Notes: a model not told the origin generated them from the letters alone. A stretch of DNA of 64,000 bases from an uncultured bacterium (GCA_900548385.1 URKJ01000012.1:24101-88100); one strand, 5' to 3'. Shown: positions 31,886 through 60,202, numbered from the stretch's first letter. Program-made: numbers and translations.

Positions 31886-31896
31886 CGGGGTTTGCA

Positions 31897-32957: not shown

Positions 32958-33005
32958 ATAAATAAATGACACAGTAACTCTACTAATATCAACTTCGGAC
33001 GGAAA

Positions 33006-34037: not shown

Positions 34038-34052
34038 CGGGAGGTGTTTTTT

Positions 34053-34787: not shown

Positions 34788-34799
34788 AAGGAGCATTTC

Positions 34800-37700: not shown

Positions 37701-38492
37701 TCCGCTCATTTGAAGCTCGGAAAAGGCGATGTGCTGATGACGCAGGCGGAAGTCACTTCCACGTTCCGGTCGGATTCCGGTGCCGCGCTTTTGGCCCGCC
37801 GTCTTTTGGAAACCGTTCTGGACGATGCAACCCGGAAAAACGCCTCGCCGTTTCGCGGGTACGAGGTCAAGGTTAAAGGACTGAAAGCGTCCCGCGCAAA
37901 GTTCATTTCCCTGAAAAATGCCGCGAATATGGCGTTTGCAGACGAGATTGCCAGAGACGGGAAGGGCGGGTGGACCGATCAGGGAGCCGTCAACGATCTT
38001 TCCCCGTTTCCCGTCGGCAGACGGATTTTCGGCGGTGTTCCGTTTCAAATCATTGATCCTGCGGAAAACGGCGGCCGCTCCTGCGTCGTCGTTTCCGGCA
38101 ACAGGACGCTTCCGTTTCAGCCGCGGAGCCGGAGTATCGAAATCGGCGGGCGGGTGAAGCGTCTTCTGTTCCTGCATTCCGGCGCGTGGATCGCTCCCGA
38201 CGGCGGACAGGTCGGCGAATATGAGGTTCGGTATGCTTCCGGGAAAACGTGGTCGATTCCGGTTGTGGAAGGGGTGAACATTACAGACTGGTGGGGACCA
38301 TCCAAAAAATTGAAATCGGCGATGTGCGGGTGGAGCGGTATGAATAAGAGCGGGGTCGTGGGTGCGTTCCTGTATTCCTGGGACAATCCGCATCCCGAAG
38401 ATCAGATAAGTTCGATCGTGTTGAAAACAAAAGGAAACGCCGTGGTGGGTCTGCTTGGCCTGACGGCAGAAAAAACGGAGGAGTCCGAATGA
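34800..38492 (+). CDS. secreted GH2-family glycoside hydrolase with ~600-aa C-terminal extension
   Basis: 1230 aa. Signal peptide MKVKWIFCVLTAALFLCAAE. GH2 blocks WFRKEFTAP..., LWSPESPFLY, NGKPVMLRG, acid/base FGNEL. The extension includes a flavodoxin/GATase1-like stretch YDVLVIGNGS...ENGGRLLVFDQ. Confidence 0.75.
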   Translation: MKVKWIFCVLTAALFLCAAEKPEDFQPDFKTWDIYLPHLNRTYLSGWWKLKKVSSDRRNDPLDEGTKRKFHLPETDDSGWGKDLVPNNLHAPFLSPNATREERTWGGVAWFRKEFTAPELKKGERAILHFNEVLGIFKVWVNGTLVGEQDFTMPTKYSDYKGPGDQYDYDVTEQLRPGAKNTIAVRLFHTGEPVMWKIWAPYCGILGTVYLDVKPPAWSDRILVTPEKNLRDVSFECLLSGSENTEDTDSWNAEIFEWNSGKRVASAVFGKAYAGDGGRYVAGKASIEDAKLWSPESPFLYGVKLRNRKGEVTGVQRFGMRTFGVKDGNFVLNGKPVMLRGICQGNEYPRNSHGYSFAMTTNEGDALRRYWQAYRDSNVNHIRIHSCEHSPNTYDIMDELGFILTDELTYPTVHLKNAVLAELIDTKSFDSASDKTGKLLPQFIGKITRRIHRNYSHPSICTYSFGNELRDYSGRAATMLNNLYDLYHRIDRQGRPVTSSSGRFWKDGSNVEELCKTEKMDYADTHDYTGSINNMPLAYCQPVAEHFVSLLKKHFPGGKVPIVNGETVYFAQHYYAGITDGIWPEESDNSPNWKKALFALNDWHAKERGTAFLALYWIRNWGMKNYKFHRDLGRGIYTDRILEVQRKLWPDMDGFEALSGPFFRMPKSAYPFDRLKFEPNEAYSYLRRVCAPQIVILDYVAPNRFTGETVSTNAYLINNSERDVENAVLEIGFERNGKSVGGTLAKKIGTVKSNEKKIIPVEFKLPGRDGAYRLVYRFLSGGKELNRRDGDLNLRSRAELFAPLKTAKRIALYDASAVFGGLKPYSSTKVLKAFGVPFVPVEDFKELRKYDVLVIGNGSVDGKVADGADGIRAFVENGGRLLVFDQTVSGRIPFLPELEYSLAGPGQFSEILQFDHPVLKGMTQKEFFCWNQKDWSVYRAYIRPVSEAALTVGGNSGSWGADAFGMVSAHLKLGKGDVLMTQAEVTSTFRSDSGAALLARRLLETVLDDATRKNASPFRGYEVKVKGLKASRAKFISLKNAANMAFADEIARDGKGGWTDQGAVNDLSPFPVGRRIFGGVPFQIIDPAENGGRSCVVVSGNRTLPFQPRSRSIEIGGRVKRLLFLHSGAWIAPDGGQVGEYEVRYASGKTWSIPVVEGVNITDWWGPSKKLKSAMCGWSGMNKSGVVGAFLYSWDNPHPEDQISSIVLKTKGNAVVGLLGLTAEKTEESE

Positions 38493-39247
38493 AAAAACAA
38501 AATTGGATTTTGGGGGCGGTTCTCGCGGTCTGCGGAGCCGGAGCACTTGCAGCGGAAACGTACACCAGTGACGGTTTCAGTGCAAGGATCACGAACAGCG
38601 GAATGATCGAGAACCTGCGGTACAGGGAGCAGCTGCTCTGCAAACTGATTCAGCTGAATGGTTCCTATCGGCTGCCGCCGGATGCGCAGAAATACGATGC
38701 GCGGTTTTTCCAGTCGTGGGACGGTTCCGGAAAGGCGGTCTGCAAACGGGACGGCGACACGATGATGGTTACGATTGATTCGAAGCTTGGGAACAAGGTT
38801 CTGAAGGATGCCGCGGATTACAAAGTCGAAACCATGTTGACTCCGAACCGGATCACGGTCCGCACCTCCGTCAAGTTGAACGTTCCCCTGCAGACAACTT
38901 TCAACCTTTTCCAGACGATCATGAACATGCCTCCCGCATTTTTCGGCCGCGGAGTGAAGTGTACGGACGGTTCAGCTCCGGAACGGTTTGAGATCCTGCC
39001 CGAAACTTACAATAAAGCGTTCCGGTTGAAAGGCGATTCAATCGCCGTTTCCACGGGCAAAGGGGTTTTCCTCGTTGCGGGCGGCAAAGGAGTGACCGTC
39101 AATTTCATGGATTCCCGCATGTGGGGCGGCAAGGATTTTTCATTTACCGTCGCCGGTCCTGCGAAGTGGACACCGAAGGCGGTGGAGCATCCTGCGGGCA
39201 GCACTTTCAGCTGGGAGTTTACGCTCTCTTTTGAACCGGAGAAGTAG
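38489..39247 (+). CDS. secreted hypothetical protein, translationally coupled to the GH2 gene
   Basis: 252 aa. ATGA start/stop overlap with the GH2 gene. Signal peptide MKKQNWILGAVLAVCGAGALAAE. No recognisable motif. Confidence 0.55.
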   Translation: MKKQNWILGAVLAVCGAGALAAETYTSDGFSARITNSGMIENLRYREQLLCKLIQLNGSYRLPPDAQKYDARFFQSWDGSGKAVCKRDGDTMMVTIDSKLGNKVLKDAADYKVETMLTPNRITVRTSVKLNVPLQTTFNLFQTIMNMPPAFFGRGVKCTDGSAPERFEILPETYNKAFRLKGDSIAVSTGKGVFLVAGGKGVTVNFMDSRMWGGKDFSFTVAGPAKWTPKAVEHPAGSTFSWEFTLSFEPEK

Positions 39248-39329: not shown

Positions 39330-42300
39330 TTATTCCGGCCGGACCAATATGCCGCCTGCCCTGGAACGGTCGCGCAGATCGACGTTGAAACCGAGGAACC
39401 GGATCGGAAAGTCGATTGTCCCATTGCGTTTTCCGCCGTACCGGATCACCTTTTTGCCGAAGATTTCCGTCGGCTTGAACGTCAGACTTTGCCATACTCC
39501 CGGTTTTACATTGCGGAGCTCCTGCTTTAACTGGAATGTTTCGCCGGAATGGTCCAGCAGGAGCAGACTGACGGCTTTGACATTGTCCGTTTCCGGGAGA
39601 AAACGGAATTCGACGGTGCGTTTCAGTTCTTTTGCCGAGGCGGCGAACGGATAGGGTACGGTACGGAAAATATTGCCGTATCCGCGCTGCGGCGAGGCGA
39701 TCCAGGAAAGTCGCAGAGCAGTCTCTTTTTCGGCGCCTTTCAACTGGAAACCTTTGGAATAGTTGCACCAGCTTCCGGTTTTGAGCTTTGCCGGAGCCGA
39801 GATCAGCATTACGCGATCGGTGAACTGCCGTCCATCCGCCGTTTGGAACAGAGCGGTCAGATAACGGTAATCTCCGGTCGGGAAATCGGCGGGAACGTAC
39901 AGTGTAAACGTCGCGGTTCCCATTCCGTCCGCCGGGATCGTCAGATGCCGTTCCGCCGGTGTGACTTTCCACAGGAATTCCCGCCACGAAGCGGAAGCAT
40001 CCAGACGGATAGTTCCTGTCAGCGGCGCTGCCGACTGATTGTAAATCCGGACAGTGACGGTTTTTGCCTGTTTCGGGGCGGCGTTCAGCCGGACGCCTTT
40101 CATTTCATCGCAGCCGCGTCCCATGTTGTCCGCATCCGGCAGAATACGGACCGTTGCGGCGGTTTCCGGGAATATTTTTCTGCCTGCCGTGGTTTTAACG
40201 GTTTCCAGTTCCGGAGTCAGTTTTCCGCGGACAAATACCGGATATTCGTCCACGGGGACCGCGATTTCACCGTTCCGGTTTTTCAATGTGGATACAACGC
40301 CGTCCGAGGAGACAAGTTCCGCATCGCCGGAGGCTTTGATCCGGACCGTTTCCGCCGGATGAATGAGTTCTGCAAACGGGATTTCGAACCGGTCATAGCC
40401 GTAGGCGTCGTTGCGCCAGAATGCCAGAACGTCGCGTCCGGCTTTGTCGCGGAATGCGAAACCGGCGATCTTTCCCGCGGCAAAGGAGTGTCCTTTGATA
40501 AAGCCCCGGAATGCGGCATCGCCGATCATCCGTGCAGTGGTGCGGTATGCCGCCGCTCCGGGTTTCGGAAGACCGTAGCGGTTGGTCATTCCGAAATCCT
40601 CTTCCAGATAATCAAGCGGAACATCGCGGAATGTGTAGACCAGCACTTTCGAGGCACCGAACGCTTTTCCGCCGACCATCGTTTTCGGAACGTGGAGAGC
40701 AATATAGCGCGCGACTTCCTCCGGGGAACGCTGCGGGATGACGTGGCGGGCGCTGTAAGTCGAAACGCCGATTTCCGTCAGCCAGACCGGTTTTTCCGCG
40801 ATTCCCGCGGCTTCCATGGAACTGTTCAGCTGACGGCATTTTCCGGCGATTCCCCAGAAACCGGGAACATAGAAGCCGTAGATATGCGCGGCGACCGCAT
40901 CGGTCAGTTTTCCGGTTCCGAGCCGCAGGACGGGATCGTGGTGTGCGGAAACGTCGCCGAGAATGATGTTGGCTTGCGGATCCGCAAGCCGGATCGCCTT
41001 TGCCAGCGTTTTGGCATACTGCGCATAATCTTCCGGCATCATTTTCCAGTAATAGGGTTCGTTGCCGAGTTCCCAGTCGTGGATGTCGTTCTTGTATTTC
41101 TGAACCATTTGGAAGACTTCTTCCGCCGCGTTTGCGAACTCCGGCGCAATACCGTGTTCCGCCCATTTTGCGCAGACCGCACTGTTTGCGCGGCTCTGTT
41201 CCATCTGCCTGGGACTATAGCCGCGGCAGATCAGAAGCGGCCGGAAGCCATGTTTGCGGACGACCCGGAAGAGGTCGCGTGCACCTTCGCGCTCGTTTCC
41301 CGCGTCATTGCGGATGATGCTCACGCCGAGTTCCCGGAGAATGTCAAAATCAGGCAGTTCGTTTGTGTAGGAGTTTGCCCAGCGCTGAAGATGAACCGTG
41401 AACCCGAAATCTCCATCGGCTCCGTAATCCGGCATTTTCTCCCGCATGACGGCAAACGGAATCCGGACCGCCTTTCCTTCGTATGCCGGATCGTCCGGGA
41501 ATACGGAAAGTTCATAATAGCCGTCTTTGGCGGGGAGCGGGAAACGATGGATGCTGACTCCCTGTTTCAGATCGGTTTTGACCGTGTTTTCGGAAACGGT
41601 TTCTCCCCGTGCGTTGCGGATTTCAAGTTTCAGGACCGCCTGTTTCCGGGCGTTTGCCGAACGGATTTTCAACTCTCCCTGTGACGGAGCATCCGCAAAG
41701 AAGAAGTTCTTTTTTGTGTTCAGCAGCGGAGCGATTGCAAGATCGGAAGTGGAGGCAACACGGAATCCGCCGTATTCTTCTTCGGAATTGTCGTTTCTCT
41801 GCAGGAAGCGGATCGTGTTGAGCAGATCGGGATCCTGTTGTTTGTCGTTTGCGCCCAGAAAGACCGGGGCTCCGGCGTAGTACTTGTTTTCCATCCATTC
41901 GCTGACTCCGGAGGCGTGATTGCGGATGCCGTAATGGGACGGTTTTCCGGCGTCTGCTTTGGTGATGACGGGATAACCGCCTTTGCCGTCATAGAATCCC
42001 GCTTTGTAGAATTCGTGCATGTCAGGCAGAAAATAGAGACGCGGCGAATCCGGCGTCGTCAGATCCCGCCAGCCGATGATGCCGGGGGCGGAAGAGCCGT
42101 TCGGGCGTGTCCCCCGGAAAATCCGGTAGACCGGTCCCCTGGAGAGCCAGTTGCAATACCGGGCGGCATCGACGCGGCTTACATGGTTAACGGGTTTTTC
42201 CGCGTCTTCCGGCGAAACTTCGTACCGGTATGCGCCCTCGTTTCCGGTGCGGCGGATCCGCATTTTCGGATTGTACAGGCCGTCAGGATCACTTGCTGCG

Positions 42301-42506
42301 ACGGCGTTCAGAAATTTTACATATTCCGCGTTGGTGACTTCCGTTTCGGCGATGCGGTAAGGATAGGAGACCGTACCGCGCGGATAGCCTTTTTTAGAGG
42401 TGAACGGTACGACTTTTCCCGGATTTCCAAGGTCGCCGATGGTGATGAAATTCCCGGCGGTGGCGGAAAGGGCGGTCAGCAGAGCAAGATTCAACAGTTT
42501 TTTCAT
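39330..42506 (-). CDS. secreted fusion: SUMF1/FGE-type domain + clan GH-A glycoside hydrolase + C-terminal beta-sandwich regions
   Basis: Start at ATG 42506 (RBS GAGGTG; signal peptide MKKLLNLALLTALSATAG). FGE-type blocks VTNAEYVKFLN, VNHVSRVDAARYCNWLS, SGVSEWM, GGFRVAS. GH-A motifs WELGNEPYYW and VWLTEIGVS. Confidence 0.65.
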   Translation of the reverse strand: MKKLLNLALLTALSATAGNFITIGDLGNPGKVVPFTSKKGYPRGTVSYPYRIAETEVTNAEYVKFLNAVAASDPDGLYNPKMRIRRTGNEGAYRYEVSPEDAEKPVNHVSRVDAARYCNWLSRGPVYRIFRGTRPNGSSAPGIIGWRDLTTPDSPRLYFLPDMHEFYKAGFYDGKGGYPVITKADAGKPSHYGIRNHASGVSEWMENKYYAGAPVFLGANDKQQDPDLLNTIRFLQRNDNSEEEYGGFRVASTSDLAIAPLLNTKKNFFFADAPSQGELKIRSANARKQAVLKLEIRNARGETVSENTVKTDLKQGVSIHRFPLPAKDGYYELSVFPDDPAYEGKAVRIPFAVMREKMPDYGADGDFGFTVHLQRWANSYTNELPDFDILRELGVSIIRNDAGNEREGARDLFRVVRKHGFRPLLICRGYSPRQMEQSRANSAVCAKWAEHGIAPEFANAAEEVFQMVQKYKNDIHDWELGNEPYYWKMMPEDYAQYAKTLAKAIRLADPQANIILGDVSAHHDPVLRLGTGKLTDAVAAHIYGFYVPGFWGIAGKCRQLNSSMEAAGIAEKPVWLTEIGVSTYSARHVIPQRSPEEVARYIALHVPKTMVGGKAFGASKVLVYTFRDVPLDYLEEDFGMTNRYGLPKPGAAAYRTTARMIGDAAFRGFIKGHSFAAGKIAGFAFRDKAGRDVLAFWRNDAYGYDRFEIPFAELIHPAETVRIKASGDAELVSSDGVVSTLKNRNGEIAVPVDEYPVFVRGKLTPELETVKTTAGRKIFPETAATVRILPDADNMGRGCDEMKGVRLNAAPKQAKTVTVRIYNQSAAPLTGTIRLDASASWREFLWKVTPAERHLTIPADGMGTATFTLYVPADFPTGDYRYLTALFQTADGRQFTDRVMLISAPAKLKTGSWCNYSKGFQLKGAEKETALRLSWIASPQRGYGNIFRTVPYPFAASAKELKRTVEFRFLPETDNVKAVSLLLLDHSGETFQLKQELRNVKPGVWQSLTFKPTEIFGKKVIRYGGKRNGTIDFPIRFLGFNVDLRDRSRAGGILVRPE

Positions 42507-42516
42507 GGGAACCACC

Positions 42517-43200
42517 TCACCACGGAGCCGTTGCTATGCCGCTTTCCCAGGAGAGATATCCCCACCAGGCATAACGAGTTTCCGGAAATTCCCGGTTCAT
42601 AGTATCTCCGACACGGCGGAAACGGATGCTTTGGACGTGACCGTCGAGGAATGCGCCGTTCATGTTCATGCCATGATCCCAGCGCAGTTGTTTGTAGGCG
42701 GTCGCATCGCCGAAAAAGTGATAACTGACGATCCAACTGGTTGTTTCCAGAATGGTCGGGCATTTGGTCGGACGGGACACTTTTTCGATTCTGACCGGAG
42801 ATTTCGGGGATTTCTGACTGTCCATTCCGTGCCACATGATGAGATTGTTTCCGCCGTAACCCTGTGTTCCGTTCATCGGTTTGCGATTGGAAGGGCATTG
42901 CCAGACTTTATTGTTCATTTTCTGATTTCTCTGCCGTCCGCCGAGATACATACGGTCCAGAATCCCGTGCCACTGATTGTCGAATTCCATGGAAGTGGTG
43001 GAAGAGACGCACGGAACAATGAAGCCGGTATCATTCGCATACATGGTGACGGCTGATATCTGCTGTTTCATGTTCCCCATGCATGCCATCTGCTGCCCTT
43101 TTTCCCGTGCCTTGTTCAGTGCCGGCAGGAGCATTGCTGCGAGAATTGCAATGATTGCGATTACGACGAGGAGCTCTATGAGGGTAAATCTCCGTTTCAT
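42517..43200 (-). CDS. prepilin-type N-terminal methylation-domain protein, H-X9-DG family
   Basis: 227 aa. N-terminus [34 protein letters not shown]-terminal [18 protein letters not shown] overlap with the regulator gene. Confidence 0.88.
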
Positions 43201-44324
43201 TGTGACTTTCCTTTTTTGATTGATTTGTTATTTTGAACCGTTTTGATGCTTTTTCGTTCGATGATTTCCTGTTCACAGAAGAAGAAATGTTCGTCAAGGA
43301 ATTTTCCTCCCGCGATTTCCGTTGCCCGTTTGCACATGCCGTCGTAATGCGGGCAGACCGCAGAGAGCGGCGGATTGCTGTATTCCAGCCAGGTGGATTC
43401 TCCTTCGGAGATCAGGCTGATGTCATCCGGCACGGCGAAGCCGCCTTCCACCAGAATGGGAATTGCCGCAACGGCACCCACGCCGGAGGTGTAGACCAGT
43501 GCGGAAAGTTTCTGTTTCCGGATATTGTCCAGATTTTTTGCAGTGATCTGACGGGCGGCGTTCAGGGAGTTTTCCCATGGGCGGATCGTTTCCGAGAAGA
43601 TATGGGATGCCGGTATCACGGCTCCGTTCCGGCGGAGTGTTTTGACAAAGGCGTTCTGTTTCCGGATTCCGTAATCGCTTTGCGGTTCATTGCGTACATA
43701 ACCGACCCGCTCGTGCCCGTGCTGCAGCAGACATTCCGCCATGAGACGCCCGGAAAGCTCCGGTTCGTGTGACACAATATAAAGATTTTCCGGCATGTCT
43801 TCGTAATAGGATTGACTGTCCAGCAGAACCACGGGAACGGATTGTCTGCCGAGAATTTCCAGCTCTTCATGACTGTAACGGTCCGGAGTCGGAATGATCA
43901 GAATTTCCCGGCAGTTCGGATAACGCGCCGCCGCTTCTGTGATGGCCCGGACCGTGGTGTCCGGCTGCATTTTGTAGGAGATTACCTGAAAACCGCTCTG
44001 TTTGGCGTATTGTTCCGTCATGAATTCAAGTCTCCAGAGCTGTTCCGACGGATAATCCGGATATGCGAAAAAGATGGATGCCGCGTTCTGCGCCGCATCG
44101 GGAACTTCCGGATTCTGCGGCATGCGCGCCGCCACAATACCCCGTCCCTGCTGACGGATGATCACATTTTCGTGTTCCAGTTCGATCAAAGCCTGATTCA
44201 CGGTTGCCATTGCAACGCTGAATCTGCGCAACAAAGTGCGTACCGAGGGCATGGAAGTGATTGCTTCCGGTTTCAGCGCCTCCGCTTTCAGATATTCTTT
44301 GATCTGCACATATTTTGGAACCAT
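43197..44324 (-). CDS. AraR-type regulator (GntR winged-HTH + LacI/PBP-type sugar-sensor domain)
   Basis: 375 aa. w[44 protein letters not shown], followed by a LacI-like sensor domain. Confidence 0.7.
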
Positions 44325-44367
44325 CGCCGTTATCCTGTTTAATGACCAGTGTTCTAGTACAGTTATA

Positions 44368-44396
44368 ATTATACAACAAAATCATGAAAATGTCAA
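44368..44396 (-). promoter_or_regulatory. consensus sigma70 promoter of cassette c
   Basis: Minus strand: TTGACA (44396-44391), 17-nt spacer, TATAAT (44373-44368), preceded by ccctc and a T-rich tract. Lies 43 nt upstream of ATG 44324. Confidence 0.65.
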
Positions 44397-48132: not shown

Positions 48133-51100
48133 ATGAAATTCAAGTTGATGGCTGCATTGGCGCTTGCTGTGGCGCTTCCGGTTCAGCCGGTGTTTTCGCA
48201 GAGTGGGTCCGGAGCGTCGTCTCAGGCGTCGTCCGATGTCTGGAGCACCTGGCGCAAAGGATTCGAGAGCTATGAGCAGGCGGAAAAAGCGGTAAAAAAT
48301 AAAGATTACAGCCTTGCGATCTCCCATTACCGGATGTCTCTGAATTCATTCCGGGCGGTAAGAAAATCGAATCCGAACTGGAACCGCAGTGTGATCAGCT
48401 ACCGGATTGACCTCTGTCTCCGCCGGATCCGGGCGGCGCAGGAATTGCAGGTTGCCGCTGCGAAGAAAGCGGTTCCCGAAAAACCGAAAGCCGTGGTCAA
48501 CGCTGTTCCGAAACGTCCGGTTCCCCAGCGTGAGGACTTTGTGACGCAGTCGCTGAAAATGCGCGCGCGTCTTGCCGAAGCGGAAAAGGAAATCGCTGCG
48601 TTGAAACGTTCGATTGAACTCAATACGAAAGCCGCGGAGCAGGTGAAGAATCTGATCAAAGAGAAAAATGAGCTCGTGGAAAAGAACAATATGCTCACGC
48701 TTCTCCTTGAGGATTCCAAAGAAAAGCTCAAACGTGCGGACCGTAACCGTGACCGTGACCGCCGGATCGTGGAGGAAAAAGCCAAAGTCACGGCGCTCTC
48801 CGATAAACTCCGCAGTCTGGAAGTGGAGATGGATACGCTGAAACGTCAGAAAGCGGAAGCACAGAACCGCCGGAATGAAGCGGAACTCGCGTTACGGCAG
48901 AATGTGCAGCAGATCACCGCCTTGACCGCCGCGGTCGAGACTTCAAGACTGGTTCAGAAAGAGAATCAGCTTCTGCTCGCTCAGGTCGTGGAAATGAAAA
49001 AGGACCGGACCGAACTGGAAAAGAAACTGAATGAAGCGACCCGGAAGATTGCAGATCTGAACTCCCAGCTGACGAAAATCCGCGAGGGAATCGACCTGCC
49101 GGAAAATATCCGCCGGATTCAGGATAATGCCAATGTGGTCATGAAAGACAACGAGTATCTCCGGACACTGAATACAAAAAATATGAAAGAACTGGAGCTG
49201 CTCCGTAAAAGCAATCAGGCGTCCGCCGCCGAACTGGCGAAAGTTACGGCGCAGTACAAGGAGGCTGCCGCCGGCTACAGCCTGGCGTCCCGGCAGGCGC
49301 TCCAGGCGCAGACTCAGCTTTCCGCAACCGAAAAACTGGCTGAATCGTACCGGAATTCCGTGGAATTGCTGCAAAAAGAGCGCGACGGGCTCAAAAACGA
49401 GCTTTCCGCGTTTGCTTCCCGTTATGAATCCCTGCTGAAAAACGCATCGCGTTCGGATTCTCTCTCCGCGGAACTGCTGAAAAAGGAAAAGGAACTGCAG
49501 GAGCTTGCGAAGAAGACAACGGCACTGGATCTTGCATTTTCCAAACTCAAACAGGAACATGCCGCCGCCTTGCAGCTCAGTTCGGAGCTGCAAGCCAATA
49601 CGGCACGTCTTTCCGCAGAAAATCTGAAATTGAAAACCGATGCCGAAAAACTGCGCTCTGCGGCCTCCCGTGCGGAAGAACTCGGACAGAAATTCCGGCT
49701 TCTGGCGGCTGAAAATGAAACGCTCCGGAAGGAAGCCGCCTCTTTCCGTGCGGCTATGGATAAATTCGGCGTGGAAGCCGCCGCAGGTCAAGTGTTGGCC
49801 CGTGAAAAAGCCGCACTCGCCGCCGAACACGCCCGGTTGAAACAGCGTGCCGATTCCCTGAAACAGGATTTCGACCGGGTTTCTGCGGAACGCACAAAAC
49901 TGCTGGCGGAAAAAAATGTTGCGAAAGACAGCGCTGATCTTCTGCGGAAATACAAGGAAGTCGTGGCTAACAATAATCGTCTTTCCGCGGAATACGCCGG
50001 TTTGAAGCAGGAATTTGAGCGGTTCAAAGCGTCTGCCGCAAAGGTGAATCAGGCAGGATTCTCTTCCGGAAAAACCGTTGAGGAGAATGAGCGCCTGAAA
50101 CGCGAAGCCGCGGAATTGCGCGGAAAACTTACTGATTATATGAGAAAAGCGGATGCGTCTGCCGCATCCATTGCCGGATTGACAGAGGAAAACAACCGTT
50201 TGAAGCAGAGCATTGACGCTTCCGTCAAGAGTGCCGGGCAGTTTGAAGCGGAAAATGCCAGACTCAAAAAAGAGTTTGACGCATTGAAGACCACGCTTGA
50301 CGCTCAGGCTGTGGACAATGCCGGATTGAAAAAGGCGCTTGCCGAACAGCAGGCTTTGCAGGAGCGTTCCAATACTTTGATCGCGGAAAACCGGAAACTC
50401 CGGGCGGAACTCGACGATTTGAGAAAAACAGCATCCGGAAGCGATCTTTCCGCCCGTATTAAAACCCTGAGTTCGCAAAACGATTCTCTGCGGACCGAAG
50501 TCGCCACTCTGAAAGGCAGTGTGGCACGGCTGATCAAACTGGCGGAACATCCGGAGCTTGCTTCTCAGCAGCTCGAACAGACCGTTCAGGAAAACAGCGG
50601 GATGAAATTGGAAATGCAGAAATTGAAAGCGCATGTGGAAACGCTCAATGCCCAGCTGGCGGAAAATGAGAAGCGGCGTAAAGAGAACGATGCCCGGCTT
50701 GTCGCCTTGCTGGCATCGGTGCGTAATTCGCAGGCGTTTATCAAACAGCGGGATGAAACGATCCGCGGGCTCACGGAGCAGATTGAGCGGCTCAAGCGTC
50801 TTGACTCGACTTCCGCGGCGAAAGAGATCACCCAGCTTTCCGCAACCGTTACCGAGCTCAAGGAGGGAAAGGTGCAGTTTGAAACCGCGCTTGCGAATTT
50901 GAACGCTGCCCGCAAGAAACTTGAAACGGAGAATGCCGGATTGAAAGCCCGTCTTGAACTGGCGGGACGTGAAACCGAAGCACTCAAAAAACAGCTTGGT
51001 CAGCCCCGTCCGCAGGGCGAACTGGAACGCCGCAACCTTGAACTGCTGGAAGCCGCGTCAAAATATGAAAAACTGTATTCGCAGACATCCAAAGAGCGCA

Positions 51101-51882
51101 GCGAGCTTTCCGGACGCGTCAAAAATCTGGATAAGGAGATCGCAGAAGCGAAACAGCGTCTTGCGGAATCCGGTTCCACGATTGAACTGATGCGGAAAGA
51201 GCTGAAACGGTGGACCGACGATCCCATCAGCATGAACGATCAGACCGTTTATAAAAAGAATCTTGCTCTGGATTCGATTGTCGGCGAGAATGAAACGCTC
51301 CGTCGTGAAGTGGAGCGTCTCAAGACGGAACTTTCCGTTTCCAACGATTCTCTCCGCAAGAGCAGGCTGGCGATGGTCGGCATGGAAAAACGGTTCCGGG
51401 AAGTCCTGTTTTCCCTGAAAGAGTATAAACAGGAGAATCCGTCCGCCGTTCTTCTGATCGACAGCCGGAAACAGCAGGAAGAGGACCGCGCGGAGGAAGA
51501 GAAGCTGAAAAAACATCAGGCGATTATCGCCAAATCCAGAGAACAGCAGCAGAAAAAGAACACGGAAAAAGCCGTCGGGAAGAAAGCTGTTCCCGTCGTG
51601 AAAGCAGAACCGGAAAAAGGAAAAGCTGCTGACGAAGCGAAGTATAAATCCGCGATGTCGATTGCCGTGAAAGCGGAGAAAGAGAAAAATATGGCGGTGG
51701 CGCTGATGAATTACTGGCGCGCAGTCGATGCGTGGCCGGAAAGCGTGGAGGCTTATTCCGGTCTGACGCGGGTTTATCTGGCGCGCGGCGATAAGGCCAG
51801 CGCACAGAAAGCATACGAGACCGCCCGGAAATTCGGGCTTGAACAATCCAAAGAACTGGAAAACAAACTTTACGGAGAATAA
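48133..51882 (+). CDS. exported giant coiled-coil protein with TPR-like termini
   Basis: 1249 aa. Signal peptide MKFKLMAALALAVALPVQPVFSQ. About 1000 aa are heptad-rich and dominated by E/K/L/A/R, with recurring EN.RLK.E units. TPR-like helices at both ends. RBS GGAGG. Confidence 0.75.
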   Translation: MKFKLMAALALAVALPVQPVFSQSGSGASSQASSDVWSTWRKGFESYEQAEKAVKNKDYSLAISHYRMSLNSFRAVRKSNPNWNRSVISYRIDLCLRRIRAAQELQVAAAKKAVPEKPKAVVNAVPKRPVPQREDFVTQSLKMRARLAEAEKEIAALKRSIELNTKAAEQVKNLIKEKNELVEKNNMLTLLLEDSKEKLKRADRNRDRDRRIVEEKAKVTALSDKLRSLEVEMDTLKRQKAEAQNRRNEAELALRQNVQQITALTAAVETSRLVQKENQLLLAQVVEMKKDRTELEKKLNEATRKIADLNSQLTKIREGIDLPENIRRIQDNANVVMKDNEYLRTLNTKNMKELELLRKSNQASAAELAKVTAQYKEAAAGYSLASRQALQAQTQLSATEKLAESYRNSVELLQKERDGLKNELSAFASRYESLLKNASRSDSLSAELLKKEKELQELAKKTTALDLAFSKLKQEHAAALQLSSELQANTARLSAENLKLKTDAEKLRSAASRAEELGQKFRLLAAENETLRKEAASFRAAMDKFGVEAAAGQVLAREKAALAAEHARLKQRADSLKQDFDRVSAERTKLLAEKNVAKDSADLLRKYKEVVANNNRLSAEYAGLKQEFERFKASAAKVNQAGFSSGKTVEENERLKREAAELRGKLTDYMRKADASAASIAGLTEENNRLKQSIDASVKSAGQFEAENARLKKEFDALKTTLDAQAVDNAGLKKALAEQQALQERSNTLIAENRKLRAELDDLRKTASGSDLSARIKTLSSQNDSLRTEVATLKGSVARLIKLAEHPELASQQLEQTVQENSGMKLEMQKLKAHVETLNAQLAENEKRRKENDARLVALLASVRNSQAFIKQRDETIRGLTEQIERLKRLDSTSAAKEITQLSATVTELKEGKVQFETALANLNAARKKLETENAGLKARLELAGRETEALKKQLGQPRPQGELERRNLELLEAASKYEKLYSQTSKERSELSGRVKNLDKEIAEAKQRLAESGSTIELMRKELKRWTDDPISMNDQTVYKKNLALDSIVGENETLRREVERLKTELSVSNDSLRKSRLAMVGMEKRFREVLFSLKEYKQENPSAVLLIDSRKQQEEDRAEEEKLKKHQAIIAKSREQQQKKNTEKAVGKKAVPVVKAEPEKGKAADEAKYKSAMSIAVKAEKEKNMAVALMNYWRAVDAWPESVEAYSGLTRVYLARGDKASAQKAYETARKFGLEQSKELENKLYGE

Positions 51883-54273: not shown

Positions 54274-54285
54274 AGCCGGTTGACG

Positions 54286-55116
54286 ATGGATAACGGCAGC
54301 GGTTTCTGCGGGAAGTTCAATTATGATTTTCTGCAAACGCATCATACGCTGGTGCAGTTGAAGATCCTTGAACTCGCGTTTGCCCGGTTTGTCTGGAAAG
54401 GGCGCAACAGTTATTCTTTCAACCGCTGTTTTCTGATCCTCAAAGGGGAAGGCTGGATTTGCAATCATACCGGTTCGCAACAGCTGACCATGTCCGCCGG
54501 AAACGGTTATTTCATGCCGCCGGGCATTGATCTTTCCTTTGATTTTCCGCCGGGACTCGAACTGCTCAGCATTCATTTCAACGCTTTTCTGCTGCCCGGA
54601 ATGGATGTGTTTGCCAAAGAGACGCAATGCCTGGAATTTCCGGTCGGGACGGCGCGTCTGGAGGAATTCCGGCTTCTTTTGGAACGGGCTGACGGCTGGG
54701 GATCGCTCTGCCGGTTTGAAAGTATTCTGTGGGAACTGCTTTCCGGGATCAATCTGCCGGGGATGGATCATTTCGGCAGTGTTCCCGCTCTTCAGAAACG
54801 GTATGGGTCGCTGCTGCAGTATATTCATGACAATATTTCCGCCCGGACCGGGATCGGGGAGTTGAGTGCGGTGGCTGGAGTGGGAAGCGATACGCTGTCC
54901 CGTCGCTTTTCCCGTGATTTCGGAATTCCGCTGAAAACGTTTCTGATGAAAGAGCTGATTTCCGTTGCAGAACGTCATCTGCTTGGCGGCGACCTGTCGA
55001 TCCGGGAGATCGCGGAAAAACTGGAGTTCAGCAGCGAGTACTATTTTTCCTCGTTTTTCAAACGGATGAAAGGAATTTCGCCAACCATATTCCGTTCCAT
55101 GCGCGGAAAATTGTAA
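54286..55116 (+). CDS. AraC-family transcriptional regulator
   Basis: ATG 54286 (the ORF track starts at TTG 54280). C-terminal HTH LSAVAGVGSDTLSRRFSRDFG...IREIAEKLEFSSEYYFSSFFKRMKGISP. Confidence 0.75.
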   Translation: MDNGSGFCGKFNYDFLQTHHTLVQLKILELAFARFVWKGRNSYSFNRCFLILKGEGWICNHTGSQQLTMSAGNGYFMPPGIDLSFDFPPGLELLSIHFNAFLLPGMDVFAKETQCLEFPVGTARLEEFRLLLERADGWGSLCRFESILWELLSGINLPGMDHFGSVPALQKRYGSLLQYIHDNISARTGIGELSAVAGVGSDTLSRRFSRDFGIPLKTFLMKELISVAERHLLGGDLSIREIAEKLEFSSEYYFSSFFKRMKGISPTIFRSMRGKL

Positions 55117-55145
55117 AAAATCTTTCTTTTTTTCTGTTTCCCCTC

Positions 55146-55174
55146 TTGACAAAATTATATTTATGTGCTAAAAT
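55146..55174 (+). promoter_or_regulatory. near-consensus sigma70 promoter of cassette d
   Basis: TTGACA (55146-55151), 17-nt spacer, TAAAAT (55169-55174), preceded by ccctc and a T-rich tract. Confidence 0.6.
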
Positions 55175-55217
55175 TTATAGCAGATAACTAAAATATTTAA
55201 CAAAAAGCGGTTTTTCA

Positions 55218-56324
55218 ATGACACGGCAATACTCCGGGACAAAGGCGCAGCAGATCAGAGATGAATTGTTGCGGCAGATACGGATCGGGAATTTTCCACG
55301 CGGCTCCCAGCTGCCCTCGGAACAAAGACTGTCAGAGCAGCTTGGAGTCAGCCACATGACGGTCCGTAAAGCGGTGGCGGATTTGACTGCTTCCGGATAT
55401 TTGCGTAAAGAGCCGCGGATCGGCACGTTCATCAACGAAGAGATTTCCGGCAGCAAACTGCAAAAGCAGCTTGGCATTGTCTGTCCGGCATGGCCGCATC
55501 CCATGTTTAACGAGTCGATGATGCATTTGAGCCGGATTTTTGAACGGGAAGGCTGGATTTGCCGTTATGCGTTTGCGCGGCATTGGGAAGACCGGATGAT
55601 CGAGGAGGTCTGGAAGAGTTCGGATGCGCTGGTTCTGTTTCCGATCCGGTCACGGGAACAGATTCCGCCGGAGCTTCTTCAACGTCTGGAGTCGCAGGAA
55701 AAGCCGGTGGTGTATGTCGGCAACCCGGATGTGTTCCGGACGGATACCGTGTCGTTTGATGATGAGGCGGGGATCGGAATGCTGTTGCGGGAGCTCCGCA
55801 AGTTCGGGCACACCTGCATCGGACGTCTTTCCCAACGGATCCCGGAGAGGAAGCTGCGTCCGCGTGACGAACGGCTGTTTCTGGAAGCCGCGGCGGAAAA
55901 CCCGTGGTGCCGCATTGTGGACTTTGATGTGGAATGCCCTTATTTTGAATCTCCGGTGAATGCGGTTTACCGGAAAATCCGGGAGCAGGGGATCGGAGAA
56001 TGCACGGTTCTTGCCGGGAGTTACAGTATGATTCTTGCCGCCCATGCCGCGTTGGTCGACAGCGGATTCCGGGTGCCGGAAGACGTGTCGCTGGTTGTTC
56101 TTGGAGAAAACGGCGATTTGCAGTTCCTCCGTCCGCGTCCGGCCCATTGCTCGTTTTCAGTTGAGGTGCAGGCAAAACTGATTTTAGAACTGATTCTCCG
56201 CCGGATTGCGGATCCGGACCGTCCGGTCCGCAACCCGAAAGTCCCGCCCTGTTTTTATCACGGGGAGACTCTGGCGGAATCTCATGCAGCAATACGGAAC
56301 AATAACACAGGAGAGTACAGATGA
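55218..56324 (+). CDS. AraR-type regulator (GntR winged-HTH + LacI/PBP-type sugar-sensor domain)
   Basis: 368 aa. wHTH LPSEQRLSEQLGVSHMTVRKAVADLTASGYLRKEPRIGTFI, followed by a LacI-like sensor domain. Confidence 0.75.
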   Translation: MTRQYSGTKAQQIRDELLRQIRIGNFPRGSQLPSEQRLSEQLGVSHMTVRKAVADLTASGYLRKEPRIGTFINEEISGSKLQKQLGIVCPAWPHPMFNESMMHLSRIFEREGWICRYAFARHWEDRMIEEVWKSSDALVLFPIRSREQIPPELLQRLESQEKPVVYVGNPDVFRTDTVSFDDEAGIGMLLRELRKFGHTCIGRLSQRIPERKLRPRDERLFLEAAAENPWCRIVDFDVECPYFESPVNAVYRKIREQGIGECTVLAGSYSMILAAHAALVDSGFRVPEDVSLVVLGENGDLQFLRPRPAHCSFSVEVQAKLILELILRRIADPDRPVRNPKVPPCFYHGETLAESHAAIRNNNTGEYR

Positions 56325-57073
56325 AAAAAGGAAAAAACAACGTCAGGAAATTTACCATTATAGAACTCTTAATAGTTGTTTCTATTATATCAATTCTTGC
56401 CGCTATGCTGCTTCCGGCTTTGAACAAGGCGAGAGAAAGAGCCCGTACAATAACCTGTGTCAACCGGAAAAAAGAGTGTATGCTGGCGTTGTTTCAATAT
56501 GGCAGTGATTACGGCATGATCGCCGGGATCACCAAGGATTCAAAGTGCTGGTACAATCTGATTGTGACGGGAAACCGGCCGGAAAATCTCGGCTATCTGA
56601 AACCGGGAATGCTGATCTGTCCGTCCAACCGTTATGTTCCGCCGGATCTTGTTTCATTCAGCGACGATCAGGTATCCTATGGAATGGAGCGGATCGCCCA
56701 TTACATGGAAGCGGACTTGCTGGAGGCGAACGGGGCAGGCAGCTGTTTTGATGTTTCCCGGAACAATACCTGGGGCTTTCTTCAGCCTGAAAGAGTCCGG
56801 ACGCCCTCGCGTCTGCTGCTGATCGCGGACAGCGCGCGCGGCGGACATCAGAAGCCGTGGACCGGTTATCAGAACGGCGGAGGCGGGAGCAGTTTTTTCT
56901 ATACTTACCAACCGCATGAACGGCGCATTCATCTGATCCATGAGGAGAGAACGGTTGCCGGATTTGTGGACGGGCATGTGGCGTCGCTTTCGTTTTCCGG
57001 TCTTTATTATGATACGACCAATCGGATCCGTTACGTTTATGCGCAGGACGGAACGACTCTGCTGAACCGCTGA
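56321..57073 (+). CDS. prepilin-type N-terminal methylation-domain protein, H-X9-DG family
   Basis: 250 aa. ATGA overlap with the regulator. N-terminus [40 protein letters not shown]-terminal H-EERTVAGFV-DGHV. Confidence 0.88.
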   Translation: MKKGKNNVRKFTIIELLIVVSIISILAAMLLPALNKARERARTITCVNRKKECMLALFQYGSDYGMIAGITKDSKCWYNLIVTGNRPENLGYLKPGMLICPSNRYVPPDLVSFSDDQVSYGMERIAHYMEADLLEANGAGSCFDVSRNNTWGFLQPERVRTPSRLLLIADSARGGHQKPWTGYQNGGGGSSFFYTYQPHERRIHLIHEERTVAGFVDGHVASLSFSGLYYDTTNRIRYVYAQDGTTLLNR

Positions 57074-57088
57074 TAATGGGGGATCGTT

Positions 57089-59740
57089 ATGAAAATCCAG
57101 TTTTCCGTATTTCTTTCTGTGTTTGTCCTGTTTCTTGGCGGGGCGGAATATCGCATCGGGGACCGGGCGGGAGTGCCGTGGATCATGCGGGATGGCATCC
57201 CGGTTTCCCCCCGCATGGTTTATGTGAGCCGGACCGCTCAGGAGATCGCGACTGTCGGGCCGCAATGGAAAGAGTTCACGCTTCGTTTTTCAATTTTGAA
57301 GAGCTGTGACAATGCCGCTCTGCATTTGCGTTTTTTCAGCATGGCATTCCGCAGGGAACCGGAATCGGTTCAGTTTTCCAGAATCGAAGTGCAGGAAGCA
57401 TCATCGGGTCGTGTGGTCAAGTCGTTCCGGTTCGACGGGGAGAAGCCGGATCCCTCCATTGATTTCTGGTGCACCGGGAAATGGAAAAACGGAAAACGGA
57501 TGCCGGTTCCTGTGGAATTTGCCAATCGCCGGCTTCCGGGTGCTCCGGACGGAGCGTTCTGTGTGACTTCCAAGGGCGATCCCGGCGGCAGGCTCGGCGA
57601 ATTTCATCTGATTCTTTACGGAATCCCCGTGGAGAAAGAACGGGATTATCAGATTATCTGCCGTGCGCGTGCCGACCGGGAACAGAACCTGACGTCGTCG
57701 CTTTATCATCAGATCGCCGTTCCGCAGGCGCTGGCATATCCCGGAACGACTCTGCGGGAACAGGTGAGACTCGCTGCCGACGCAGGGGTTGATTTTGTCA
57801 CGTTTCCGGTTGACGGGATTTGGCGGAAAGCCGGCGAGCCTGCCGATTACTCCGTTCTGGACCGGATTTGCCGTACAGTTCTGGAAGTCAATCCGCGTGC
57901 CCGGCTGATTCCGCGTGTTGATCTGAGGACGCCGCCGGAATGGTGGCAGAAAAAATATCCCGGAGAGATGATGAAATTCACGTCCGGCGGAAACGGCGGT
58001 TATCCGTCGGTCTCTTCGCTTCAGTACCGCCGGGATGCGGCGGAGGCGCTCCGGGAGGTGATCCGGTTCTGTGAAACACGTTTCAAAGACAATATGGCGG
58101 GGTATCATCCGACGGGCGGCAACACGCATGAATGGTTTTATTACCGTTCCCAGAGGCGGATTCTGAGCGGGTATGATGAGGCGACCCGTTCCGCATGGCG
58201 TCGCTTTCTGCGCAGAACTTACAACGATGACAGGAGTCTCAGGACTGCGTGGAATATGCCGGATGTCTCGCTGGCCTCCGCGGAAATACCGTCGCCGGAA
58301 TATCGCCGCCGGAATCGCCCGGTTTCTCTGCTTTCTCCGTTATCTGATCGTCCGCTGATTGATTTCAACCGTTTTTTGCAGGAAGAAATGTCGGAAACCG
58401 TTTTATCGCTGGCCCGTGTGATCCGGACGGAAACGGGCGGGACGCGTCTCAGCGTGGTGTTTTACGGTTATCTCTTTGAACTTTCCGCGATTGCAAACGG
58501 ACCCGCCTGCTCCGGGCATTATGCACTGCGGCGGATTCTCGCTTCGCCGGATGTTGATCTTGTCGCCGGACCGATTTCTTATTTGGATCGTCAGCCGGGA
58601 GGTGGGACGACAACCATGACGGCGGCGGATTCCGTGATGCTGTCCGGCAAACTCTGGCTGAATGAGGATGATACCAGTACGCATACCGCTTACCGGAACG
58701 GCAATCGTGCCCCCGGTTGGAAGAGCGGAGCAATGACGCAGGAGCAGAGTCTTCTTCTGCTGCGCCGGAATCTGTCGGTGTCGGCGTTCCATGGATTCGG
58801 GATCTGGTGGATGGATCTGTTTGGTGCCGGATGGTTTACCGATCCTGTGCTGTGGAAACTGATGCGGCAGTTTGCCGCTCTGGATACCGCCATGCGGCAG
58901 CCTGCGGACACACAGCTTGCAGAAATCATTGATGAAAATTCTCTGCTGTATCTCTCTCCTGCCGGTTTTGAACGGAATTACAATTCCGCCGTCAGCGGAC
59001 CGCTGATCAAAAACGGACGCGCAGCTCGCGGACGGACCGGCGCTTCTTCGGGGCAATATCTGCTGGATGATCTGCTTGCGGGCAAAGTCAAATCCGGATT
59101 GAATGTAATCACTTCCGCCTGGGCGCTTGACGGCGTTCAGAGAAAGAAACTCCGGGCATTGTCGGAACAGGTCCCTGCGTTCTGGTGCTGGGCGCCCGGC
59201 TATCTTGACCTTGATTCCGGAAAATTCTCGTTGAAAGCCGTGGAAGAGACGACAGGATTCCAGGTCCGCAAGCAGGTGCGGGGGAGCTTTGCGATCCGTC
59301 CGACCGCCGCCGGCTTGAAGTTCGGTTTGACGGATTCCGTTTCCGTCGCCCGGGAGTCTGTTGATCCGGTTCTTTCCCCGGTTTGCCGCAACGGGGATAT
59401 TGTGCTTGCCGAATACCTGGACGGTGCTCCGGCTGTTGTCCTCCGTCCGGGAAAAGTTCCCGCTTTGTTCTGCGGCATTACCGATATTCCCGCCGGACTC
59501 TACCGCAGTTTTGCCGCGTTTGCGGGGATTCATCTGTATACAGACCGTCCGGCTTATGTTCTGCGGCGCGGAGAGTGGCTGAGTGTCACAGCGCCGGAAC
59601 AGGGATTTTATAAGATCAGCACCGGAACCGGTGACGGGATTGTGGATTTCTTTTCCGGCAGAAAACTTGGAACCGGTCCGGAACTCAGGATTTTTTTCCG
59701 GAAAGGGGAAAACCGGATATTCCGGTTGAATCCGGAATGA
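57089..59740 (+). CDS. secreted GH42-like / clan GH-A-like hypothetical glycoside hydrolase (family unassigned)
   Basis: 883 aa. Signal peptide MKIQFSVFLSVFVLFLGGAE. TIM-barrel-like region with GGNTHEWFYY and WRRFLRRTYNDDRSLRTAWN (the GH42-style F..WL...Y....L..AW pattern). Confidence 0.5.
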   Translation: MKIQFSVFLSVFVLFLGGAEYRIGDRAGVPWIMRDGIPVSPRMVYVSRTAQEIATVGPQWKEFTLRFSILKSCDNAALHLRFFSMAFRREPESVQFSRIEVQEASSGRVVKSFRFDGEKPDPSIDFWCTGKWKNGKRMPVPVEFANRRLPGAPDGAFCVTSKGDPGGRLGEFHLILYGIPVEKERDYQIICRARADREQNLTSSLYHQIAVPQALAYPGTTLREQVRLAADAGVDFVTFPVDGIWRKAGEPADYSVLDRICRTVLEVNPRARLIPRVDLRTPPEWWQKKYPGEMMKFTSGGNGGYPSVSSLQYRRDAAEALREVIRFCETRFKDNMAGYHPTGGNTHEWFYYRSQRRILSGYDEATRSAWRRFLRRTYNDDRSLRTAWNMPDVSLASAEIPSPEYRRRNRPVSLLSPLSDRPLIDFNRFLQEEMSETVLSLARVIRTETGGTRLSVVFYGYLFELSAIANGPACSGHYALRRILASPDVDLVAGPISYLDRQPGGGTTTMTAADSVMLSGKLWLNEDDTSTHTAYRNGNRAPGWKSGAMTQEQSLLLLRRNLSVSAFHGFGIWWMDLFGAGWFTDPVLWKLMRQFAALDTAMRQPADTQLAEIIDENSLLYLSPAGFERNYNSAVSGPLIKNGRAARGRTGASSGQYLLDDLLAGKVKSGLNVITSAWALDGVQRKKLRALSEQVPAFWCWAPGYLDLDSGKFSLKAVEETTGFQVRKQVRGSFAIRPTAAGLKFGLTDSVSVARESVDPVLSPVCRNGDIVLAEYLDGAPAVVLRPGKVPALFCGITDIPAGLYRSFAAFAGIHLYTDRPAYVLRRGEWLSVTAPEQGFYKISTGTGDGIVDFFSGRKLGTGPELRIFFRKGENRIFRLNPE

Positions 59741-60202
59741 AATACCGGACAGGCTGTCTGAAACTCAAAAGAAAACATGCCGGGCGGGATTCAAACATTT
59801 GATTGTTGTAAAGAGCCGGAGCCGCCGGGAGCACAGATTCAATTAAAAGATCGTTTTTCTGTCAAAAAATGTTCACTGTTTTCCATGTATGGATATGGAG
59901 TGTGGAGCGCACAGACGCGGCGGCTTCTTGAAAACTGCTTTTTTCATCGCCGCGGAGTCAATCCGGAACACTCCGGCAGACCGTCCGGAACTTAAAGAAA
60001 AAATGGTTTACCGGATAAAATTCCGGTATAATTATTTTAAAACCGGTATTGAAAATTTTTGTTTTCAGTGTATGTTACCTGCAACAATAGAGAGATGCGA
60101 TAATTTTATTTTTGTTGGAATGTTTTTCGGGGTTCATTAAGGGGATGGATTCCGTTCGGGGGAAATTTTTTTATTTTATCATGAAAGAAGAGGAGACACT
60201 TC

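Follow-up and report, generated by a model that had tools for sequence, protein, structure and literature searches.

A three-gene layout of sugar-type regulator, pilin-like protein and exported glycosidase recurs in Lentisphaerota

The polysaccharide utilization loci (PULs) of Bacteroidota are self-contained, glycan-specific and individually regulated units of 5-30 genes, present in many paralogous copies per genome, that combine interchangeable enzymes with a non-catalytic envelope protein under hybrid two-component or extracytoplasmic function (ECF)/anti-sigma systems. In Bacillus subtilis, the arabinan and arabinose utilization genes form a regulon under AraR, a chimeric repressor that joins a GntR winged helix-turn-helix (HTH) to a LacI/GalR-type sugar domain, binds a palindromic operator at the promoters under its control, and releases glycoside hydrolase (GH) genes and its own gene from repression when sugar is present. 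The pseudopilins of type II secretion systems (T2SSs) and the minor pilins of type IV filaments have a short basic leader with glycine, rarely alanine, at -1 for cleavage by prepilin peptidase, phenylalanine or methionine at +1, glutamate at +5, and a long alpha1 helix, hydrophobic over its N-terminal ~20 residues, that packs on a beta-rich head with an antiparallel sheet. The DUF1559/H-X9-DG proteins are the largest paralog group of Planctopirus limnophila, with 68 copies, two of them essential, and their function is not known (PMC10632474). Here we describe operon d, which occupies positions 55146-59740 on the + strand of a 64,000-nt stretch of DNA from an uncultured bacterium (GCA_900548385.1, URKJ01000012.1:24101-88100; the whole stretch is called the window below) and which brings together a promoter, an AraR-type regulator, a DUF1559/H-X9-DG pilin-like protein, and an exported carbohydrate-active enzyme (CAZyme). 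The host of the window is a human-gut Victivallales (Lentisphaerota) species, and the DNA is chromosomal. Many human-gut metagenome contigs carry the identical 883-aa enzyme and its neighbors, NCBI labels members of the 90% clusters of MutS, HflX, and the pilin-like protein "[Victivallales bacterium]", and mutS, hflX, miaB, recR, adk, map, gmk, and ptsI are intermixed with carbohydrate genes in the window.

Operon d opens with a sigma70-type promoter, TTGACA (55146-55151) and TAAAAT (55169-55174) separated by 17 nt, which matches the consensus at 11 of 12 positions, and after a 43-nt leader (55175-55217) its three genes follow on the same strand. The first (55218-56324) encodes a 368-aa regulator with a GntR HTH (Pfam PF00392, residues 10-72, E = 1e-16) and a LacI/GalR-type sugar domain (Peripla_BP_3, PF13377, residues 191-351, 29.2 bits against a cut-off of 26.5, E = 1e-6), and its sequence matches in the PDB include AraR-NTD (4egy, E = 2e-6) and a LacI-family protein (3kke, E = 4e-4); NCBIfam and the orthologs described below served as a further basis for the assignment. 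Because these matches combine the GntR HTH with Peripla_BP_3 and lead to AraR and the LacI family, the label AraR-type, which the original prediction had attached to this gene, is accurate. The two-domain architecture is that of B. subtilis AraR, with identity to AraR confined to the HTH, and by analogy the regulator of operon d would work by sugar-relieved repression. Unlike in the AraR regulon, the regulator heads the operon that it presumably controls and there is one regulator per enzyme; the unit contains neither transporter nor catabolic genes, and a pilin-like gene stands between regulator and enzyme.

The pilin-like gene (56321-57073) begins within an ATGA overlap with the stop codon of the regulator, preceded by an AGGAG Shine-Dalgarno sequence, and encodes 250 aa in which the leader MKKGKNNVRK is followed by F11-T-I-I-E15. 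This prepilin motif and the sequence H207-X9-D217-G218-H219, of which H207 and D217-G218 lie within HEERTVAGFVDG, agree with its initial reading as an H-X9-DG pilin-like protein. F11 and E15 (F+1 and E+5) are invariant, as are C46 and C100 in the family alignment; H207 is invariant and D217, G218, and H219 nearly so among 94 sequences. The protein matches TIGR02532 just above threshold (16.6 bits, cut-off 16.3), and a profile of the family matches the solved pilins PilA4 (E = 1.6e-16) and GspG (E = 4e-6); the name used by NCBI within its 90% cluster is 'type II secretion system protein'. It shares family membership with the DUF1559 proteins of Planctomycetota and Verrucomicrobiota by motif and by weak Pfam and NCBIfam matches: PF07596 scores 18.9 bits, under its cut-off of 23.3, on this protein and 30.4 bits, over it, on the paralog at 8990-9784, where TIGR04294 scores 18.8 bits against a cut-off of 19. 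The Planctomycetota proteins are longer (median 351 aa). In the AlphaFold model (pLDDT 88), an alpha1 helix of 52 residues (13-64) is followed by a beta-rich globular head of about 190 aa for which neither Foldseek nor a profile search found a PDB relative, the alpha1 helix alone matching pilins. The protein resembles pseudopilins and minor pilins in its basic leader, F+1, E+5, long hydrophobic alpha1, and predicted beta-rich head, and differs from them in having lysine rather than the canonical glycine at -1, the H-X9-DG motif, a head without a solved relative, and a gene that lies outside any gsp or pil cluster, with one copy per CAZyme operon.

The third gene (57089-59740) starts 15 nt past the pilin stop codon with a GGGGGA Shine-Dalgarno sequence and encodes an 883-aa protein with a signal-peptide-like N-terminus, an additional N-terminal beta-sandwich (approximately residues 20-207), and a GH42 match (PF02449, residues 221-458, 26.3 bits against a gathering cut-off of 21) that is also found in most of its homologs. 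Its AlphaFold model, built with 62 homologs, has a pLDDT of 92, and Foldseek relates it to GH42 beta-galactosidases, to a related glucosyltransferase, and more weakly to GH164 (E = 1e-15 to 1e-23, 11-16% identity), the matches to 1kwg, 4uzs, 5xb7, and others reaching E = 1e-21 to 1e-23 with target-normalized TM scores of 0.63-0.67 over about 750 columns. The GH42-like, signal-peptide enzyme proposed for this gene holds up, and its predicted structure places it in clan GH-A as a distant member with the GH42 fold. The GH35-like glucosyltransferase 7vl3 matches equally well, and the fold thus does not fix family or activity. Residues E348 and E526 are invariant in the alignment of homologs and are candidates for the acid/base and nucleophile glutamates that GH42 enzymes carry on strands 4 and 7. 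Compared with GH42 beta-galactosidases and alpha-L-arabinopyranosidases, the enzyme has the same three domains, a TIM barrel, an alpha/beta domain, and a beta-sandwich (TM 0.5-0.67); it is only 12-16% identical to the solved members and differs from them in the added beta-sandwich and the signal peptide. Characterized GH42 enzymes are mostly cytoplasmic. We found no PDB match by sequence and no NCBIfam match for this enzyme. A homolog in a Chthoniobacter genome stands alone.

The same layout recurs in the window and beyond it. The window holds three regulator-pilin-enzyme triples (modules b, c, and d) and one pilin-enzyme pair (module a), whose cargos differ, as had been noted for the triples and as Pfam confirms: GH2 in b, an FGE-sulfatase with a weak GH5-like match in c, the GH42-like enzyme in d, and a GH5/GH42-like protein in a. 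A profile scan with an alignment of 11 pilin-like proteins, using one genome per species, yielded 80 loci from Lentisphaerota, Verrucomicrobiota, Planctomycetota, and others, in which we counted same-strand genes next to the pilin-like gene. Over all Lentisphaerota loci, a set that includes hand-selected ones, a sugar-type regulator lies directly upstream in 19/46, an open reading frame (ORF) of at least 450 aa directly downstream in 24/40, and the full triple is present in 14/39. The corresponding counts are 0/30 and 0/29 in Verrucomicrobiota and 0/20 and 2/22 in Planctomycetota, with no full triple in either. In the unbiased, scan-only Lentisphaerota subset, phmmer places a regulator upstream in 10/35 loci and Pfam adds three (GntR-PBP, GntR-FCD, and AraC), so that at least 13/35 compare with 0/50 in the two other phyla. 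The regulators of the modules belong to several families (GntR-PBP, LacI, GntR-FCD, and AraC), and the cargos outside the window include DUF4838, GH78, GH20, GH123, heparinase II/III, and pectate-lyase-like beta-helix proteins; 20 of 24 downstream proteins have a signal-peptide-like N-terminus.

These counts bear on one alternative, namely that the pilin-like gene is functionally unrelated to its neighbors and stands beside them by chance or by hitch-hiking on strong regulated promoters. In its favor, the family is enormous, the profile built here matching 48,616 cluster representatives at a threshold of E <= 1e-30 and 395,813 when this is relaxed to E <= 1e-3; about five copies lie within 72 kb at this locus, and the neighbors of the gene are heterogeneous in Verrucomicrobiota and Planctomycetota. 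Against it are a fixed order and strand from regulator through pilin to exported CAZyme, overlapping start and stop codons, the contrast between lineages, and the retention of the triple in non-syntenic contexts down to 46% regulator identity (see below), and we regard this explanation as very improbable. The layout is not due to chance: it is lineage-specific to Lentisphaerota, translationally coupled, kept as a unit in orthologs, and associated with exported CAZymes of many families. On this point the view that the genes form a modular unit, rather than a chance adjacency, is upheld.

A second alternative concerns how the modules arose. The original prediction had read the similarity of their promoters, together with the shared layout, as the result of duplication of a promoter-regulator-pilin front end as one unit that then takes new catalytic cargo. 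The promoters are indeed alike. The exact pattern TTGACA-N16-18-TANAAT occurs at three sites in 64 kb, where 0.03 are expected, and these are the promoters of modules b (32929), c (44396, - strand), and d (55146) and no others; that of d, which agrees with the one predicted, also has a TG immediately before its -10 element (extended -10) and a shuffle P of 0.002. The flanking likenesses are confirmed as well, with ccctcTTGACA common to d and c, TTGACAAAATT common to d and b, and T-rich tracts 5' of all three promoters. In d, positions 55117-55145, immediately before the -35 element, are A/T-rich, resemble a UP element, and have CCCTC as their last letters. Across several genera, 16 of 20 modules have promoters that score at least 10/12, mostly with a 17-nt spacer; 13 of them reach a shuffle P of 0.014 or less, and the distance from the end of the -10 element to the regulator start codon is 22-56 nt across modules. 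The similarity persists over alignments of 17-20 loci. In an alignment of 17 module promoters on the -35 element, it goes beyond the hexamers to UP-like A/T tracts at about -29 to -24 and -19 to -12 (AT content 0.76-1.0 at -29 to -24 and 0.88-1.0 at -19 to -14) and to a (G/C)CCT(C/A) motif directly before TTGACA (C in 10-11/17 at -4/-3, T in 13/17 at -2). A single promoter class common to all modules fits duplication of a front end; yet spacers and leaders are not conserved between paralogs, and the aligned module promoters have no sequence in common outside the consensus elements. The likeness, including the flank matches between modules, is therefore a class signature made up of consensus hexamers, UP-like A/T tracts, and a CCT(C/A) flank, and not a mark of common descent. 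We counted 24 near-perfect promoters over about 600 kb of Lentisphaerota loci, and 16 of these stand before a GntR/LacI-type regulator. The miaB and adk promoters of the window score 10-11/12 but lack the CCT flank; as a mark of regulator-led promoters in general this flank is suggestive only, with C at -3 in 11/16 regulator promoters and 2/8 others, and we did not adopt it.

Searches through the enzyme and through the regulator identified three orthologs of operon d that keep its three genes together, with flanks that differ in each: L093 (70% identity for the regulator, 70% for the pilin, and 67% for the enzyme), L010 (63%, 47%, and 65%), and L011 (46%, 42%, and 57%), the last with one gene inserted. 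In L011 the insertion is a 220-aa Laminin_G_3 gene between regulator and pilin, and this module and a second one, arranged head to head, flank an intergenic region of 278 bp (L011 1681-11091). The -35 and -10 hexamers are kept in L093 and L011, and 20 nt around the -10 element and start, GTGCTAAAATTTATAGCAGA (55165-55184), recur unchanged in L093 as a candidate operator or transcription start region. Among paralogs, only parts are shared. The regulators of b, c, and d are 25-36% identical over partial lengths, and the pilins in the window are alike over their N-terminal ~60 residues, the alpha1 helix, only. Over 16 modules, regulator similarity does not covary with that of the pilin head (Mantel r 0.04, p 0.36; negative without the orthologs of d), and its correlation with cargo similarity (r 0.28) vanishes when these orthologs are removed. 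A module in L007 carries a d-type enzyme (66% identical) behind an unrelated regulator (23%) and pilin (28%, mostly N-terminal), and another in L008 has a 41% homolog of the enzyme behind a c-like regulator (37% identity). Both cases fit the exchange of cargo expected of a duplicating front end. Regulators that are 33-39% identical to that of d (in L012/L096 and L097) have unrelated pilins and two cargo types other than that of d, so that this regulator clade covers three cargos. In L012 and L096 the regulators are 79% and the beta-helix cargos 47% identical, whereas the pilins (L012 7119-7850 and L096 6125-6796) align over their first 58 residues only, the head having been either replaced or diverged past recognition; and the nearest paralog of the pilin of d (35% identity) lies beside a divergent AraC regulator, and its cargo is a relative of the module a enzyme.

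The several regulator families point in the same direction, and the joint duplication of promoter, regulator, and pilin is improbable. What stands of the proposal is the re-pairing, which is real and, as judged from the sequences compared here, involves regulator, pilin, and enzyme slots independently of one another; it is the layout that is conserved and not a regulator-pilin block. By the same comparisons, modules b, c, and d are ancient paralogs and not recent front-end duplicates, and the likeness of the modules in the window reflects this ancient paralogy together with a common layout. We also considered that modules are shuffled by recombination at the conserved start of the pilin gene and rejected this: over five paralogs this DNA has a mean column identity of 77%, its synonymous differences are scattered, and long identical runs are absent, so that it gives no sign of recent exchange. 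In L094 (5001-6980), a close paralog of the pilin of d (33% identity) follows oxidoreductase and glycyl-radical enzyme genes and precedes transposase fragments (DUF772 and DDE_Tnp_1), possibly a trace of mobility or disruption.

We consider it likely that operon d is a compact glycan-utilization module of a kind typical of Lentisphaerota, self-repressed and derepressed by sugar, with the pilin-like protein as the envelope partner of the enzyme. A very strong sigma70 promoter would drive one tricistronic mRNA for the AraR-type repressor, the pilin-like protein, and the Sec-exported CAZyme; no better promoter was found inside the operon. Without inducer, the repressor would shut its own near-consensus promoter. 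A consensus sigma70 promoter suits repression better than activation, and its position before a repressor gene fits tight negative autoregulation. A sugar freed from the target glycan would bind the LacI-type domain and so derepress the three genes together, the enzyme would leave the cytoplasm through Sec, and the pilin-like protein would enter the inner membrane by its alpha1 helix and serve in the envelope as the partner of the enzyme. Our best guess for that service is that the protein acts as a module-specific pilin or pseudopilin subunit on shared T2SS or type IV filament machinery, where it would bring the enzyme, or its glycan, to the cell surface or keep it there.

Several observations weigh against this reading. 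The sequences show which genes and domains are present, how tightly the genes are packed, the quality of the promoters, the recurrence of the layout in one lineage, its conservation in orthologs, the variety and export signals of the cargo, and the independent shuffling of the three slots; that the regulator represses the operon and itself, that the three genes form one transcript, which sugar induces them, and what the pilin-like protein does are inferred. A search for inverted repeats in the promoters of b, c, and d and of two orthologs gave AT-rich dyads in L093 and L011, but none in the window copy of the d promoter, where no convincing operator was found; a palindrome read by eye after the c promoter, TGTnCTAGnACA, was not reported by the inverted-repeat tool, and we claim no operator. 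In 43/47 Lentisphaerota copies of the pilin-like protein, among them all of the 14 triples (in operon d within 56321-56353), the canonical glycine at -1 is replaced by K, R, N, T, S, C, P, or another residue. In Planctomycetota and Verrucomicrobiota, where the genes do not have sugar regulators and CAZymes beside them, Gly or Ala occupies this position in 54/54 copies; F+1 and E+5 do not vary in either set. The lack of glycine at -1 makes processing and filament assembly uncertain (in some Lentisphaerota copies a glycine has moved to -2), and a Pfam scan of the window proteins found no T2SS or type IV pilus (T4P) machinery gene in the 64 kb, the parts on which assembly depends being a peptidase, an ATPase, a platform protein, and a secretin. 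Cargos that are 41-66% identical stand beside unrelated pilin heads, which argues against docking between pilin and enzyme that is specific to the fold. Finally, the scan used crude ORF calling, its loci were picked through the N-terminal motif of the pilin, and its taxon labels are the titles of metagenome-assembled genomes.

Since the heads do not track the fold of the cargo, strict docking is weakened, and both a secretion or display adaptor and a glycan binder remain live. In the latter case the pilin-like protein would be a SusD-like binder at the surface or in the periplasm that captures the polysaccharide of the enzyme, and not a secretion adaptor. The head is large and has no solved relative, the two invariant cysteines suggest an extracytoplasmic location, and the pilin diverges faster than both of its neighbors at longer range and is replaced between related modules, as might be expected if its ligand changes; minor pilins that bind glycans, and pili regulated by polysaccharide, are described elsewhere. 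Against this, Pfam, NCBIfam, and Foldseek detected no carbohydrate-binding module or lectin fold in the protein, and the family is not linked to CAZymes in Planctomycetota and Verrucomicrobiota. We rate such a binder as possible, though rather unlikely, and keep the envelope partner of a sugar-derepressed module as the preferred reading.

That reading brings the module close to a PUL. Both are self-contained, glycan-specific, individually regulated, and present in many paralogous copies per genome, and both combine interchangeable enzymes with a non-catalytic envelope protein. The modules differ from PULs in having a pilin-like partner, in comprising three genes instead of 5-30, and in using GntR, LacI, and AraC regulators instead of hybrid two-component or ECF/anti-sigma systems; no module gene and no other gene of the window has a Pfam match to SusC, SusD, or a TonB-dependent transporter. 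By analogy, module d would work like a minimal PUL without SusC and SusD. It is not a gsp or pil cluster. A broader and more tentative proposal, which we hold to be less probable than not, is that the DUF1559/H-X9-DG proteins of Lentisphaerota are the substrate-specific envelope component of an unrecognized type of polysaccharide utilization in which each CAZyme has its own repressor and partner and Gly(-1) has been lost. In it, the pilin-like partner would display or secrete the enzyme on a shared type IV filament machine, or bind the glycan, and the loss of Gly(-1) would imply either a changed specificity of the prepilin peptidase or unprocessed, membrane-anchored proteins. Searches of the open full-text literature found no description of regulator-pilin-CAZyme modules or of DUF1559/H-X9-DG function.

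The other modules of the locus vary the layout. Module b (32929-39247, + strand) has a 12/12 promoter (32929-32957), a regulator (33006-34037), a pilin-like gene (34044/34053-34787), the GH2 gene (34800-38492), and a fourth gene (38489-39247) whose start overlaps the GH2 stop codon in an ATGA and whose 252-aa product has a signal peptide, with no Pfam or NCBIfam match and no pilin motif. Module c (39330-44396, - strand) has a 12/12 promoter (44396-44368), a regulator (44324-43197), a pilin-like gene (43200-42517), and the FGE-sulfatase/GH5-like gene (42515-39330). Module a (5769-9784, - strand) is the pair without an adjoining regulator: an 11/12 promoter, TTGTCA-N17-TATAAT (9784-9756), a pilin-like gene ending at 8990, and a gene for the 1074-aa GH5/GH42-like protein (8993-5769). 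Of the four pilin-like proteins counted at the outset, the fourth exists, at 8990-9784 (- strand) in this pair, and the 252-aa protein of module b is not one of them. The promoter of module a sits within the longest ORF of its pilin-like gene; translation probably begins at Met23 (9718), and the leader then has its usual short length. The regulator of module a may be encoded by a divergent LacI gene (12227-13237; with its 10/12 promoter and flank tctcTTGACT, 12166-13237), which lies ahead of a melibiase-like gene and faces the cluster of WbsX-like, unknown, pilin, and GH genes to which this module belongs. Just past the right end of the window lies a fifth module (L001 20294-22652) with a LacI-type regulator of 338 aa, a pilin-like protein of 241 aa, a GH51 alpha-L-arabinofuranosidase, and an 11/12 promoter with the flank gcctaTTGAC, as in module b.

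AraC-family genes lie directly 5' of modules b (31717-32706) and d (54280-55116), on the same strand as these, and are 29% alike over 100 aa; we rejected an AraC gene as a fourth constant part of the module, since one precedes only 3 of 17 modules, that of L018 among them. Downstream of operon d, a hairpin with a T-run on both strands (60009-60028) is a possible operon terminator, on weak evidence, as terminator-like sites in the window are not enriched over shuffles. It is spanned by an 83-aa ORF (59889-60140), called as a gene on public contigs and without a family match, which may instead be non-coding intergenic sequence bearing the operon terminator. An Rfam search of the window returned one tRNA only and no leader RNA element. 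Palindromes of the form CCGGA-N2-7-TCCGG (for example, 59713-59725, 59963-59976, 60011-60026, and 55725-56226) number 17 in the window against 1.5 expected; their excess follows from a genome-wide signature, CCGGA/TCCGG being the second commonest 5-mer and 4.7-fold over-represented, and we rejected those near the operon end as a feature specific to the module. A gene for a 1249-aa protein with weak coiled-coil Pfam matches only (48133-51882) lies between hflX and ybaB/recR, in a region whose AT skew (0.18-0.25) is markedly positive relative to the remaining window.

These modules are of interest mainly because they connect the DUF1559/H-X9-DG proteins, a huge family with no known function, with glycan degradation that is probably inducible, and because they expose an unusual leader sequence in that family. 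Because DUF1559 genes in Lentisphaerota are wired one by one to predicted sugar-sensing repressors and exported CAZymes, they offer a concrete role hypothesis, the first testable one for the family, and an experimental handle, as each copy should respond to one glycan as inducer. The compact, strong, and probably tightly repressed promoter-regulator pairs could serve as sugar-inducible switches. For the organisms themselves, the layout shows how an abundant and little-studied phylum of the human gut arranges glycan degradation without Sus-type transporters.

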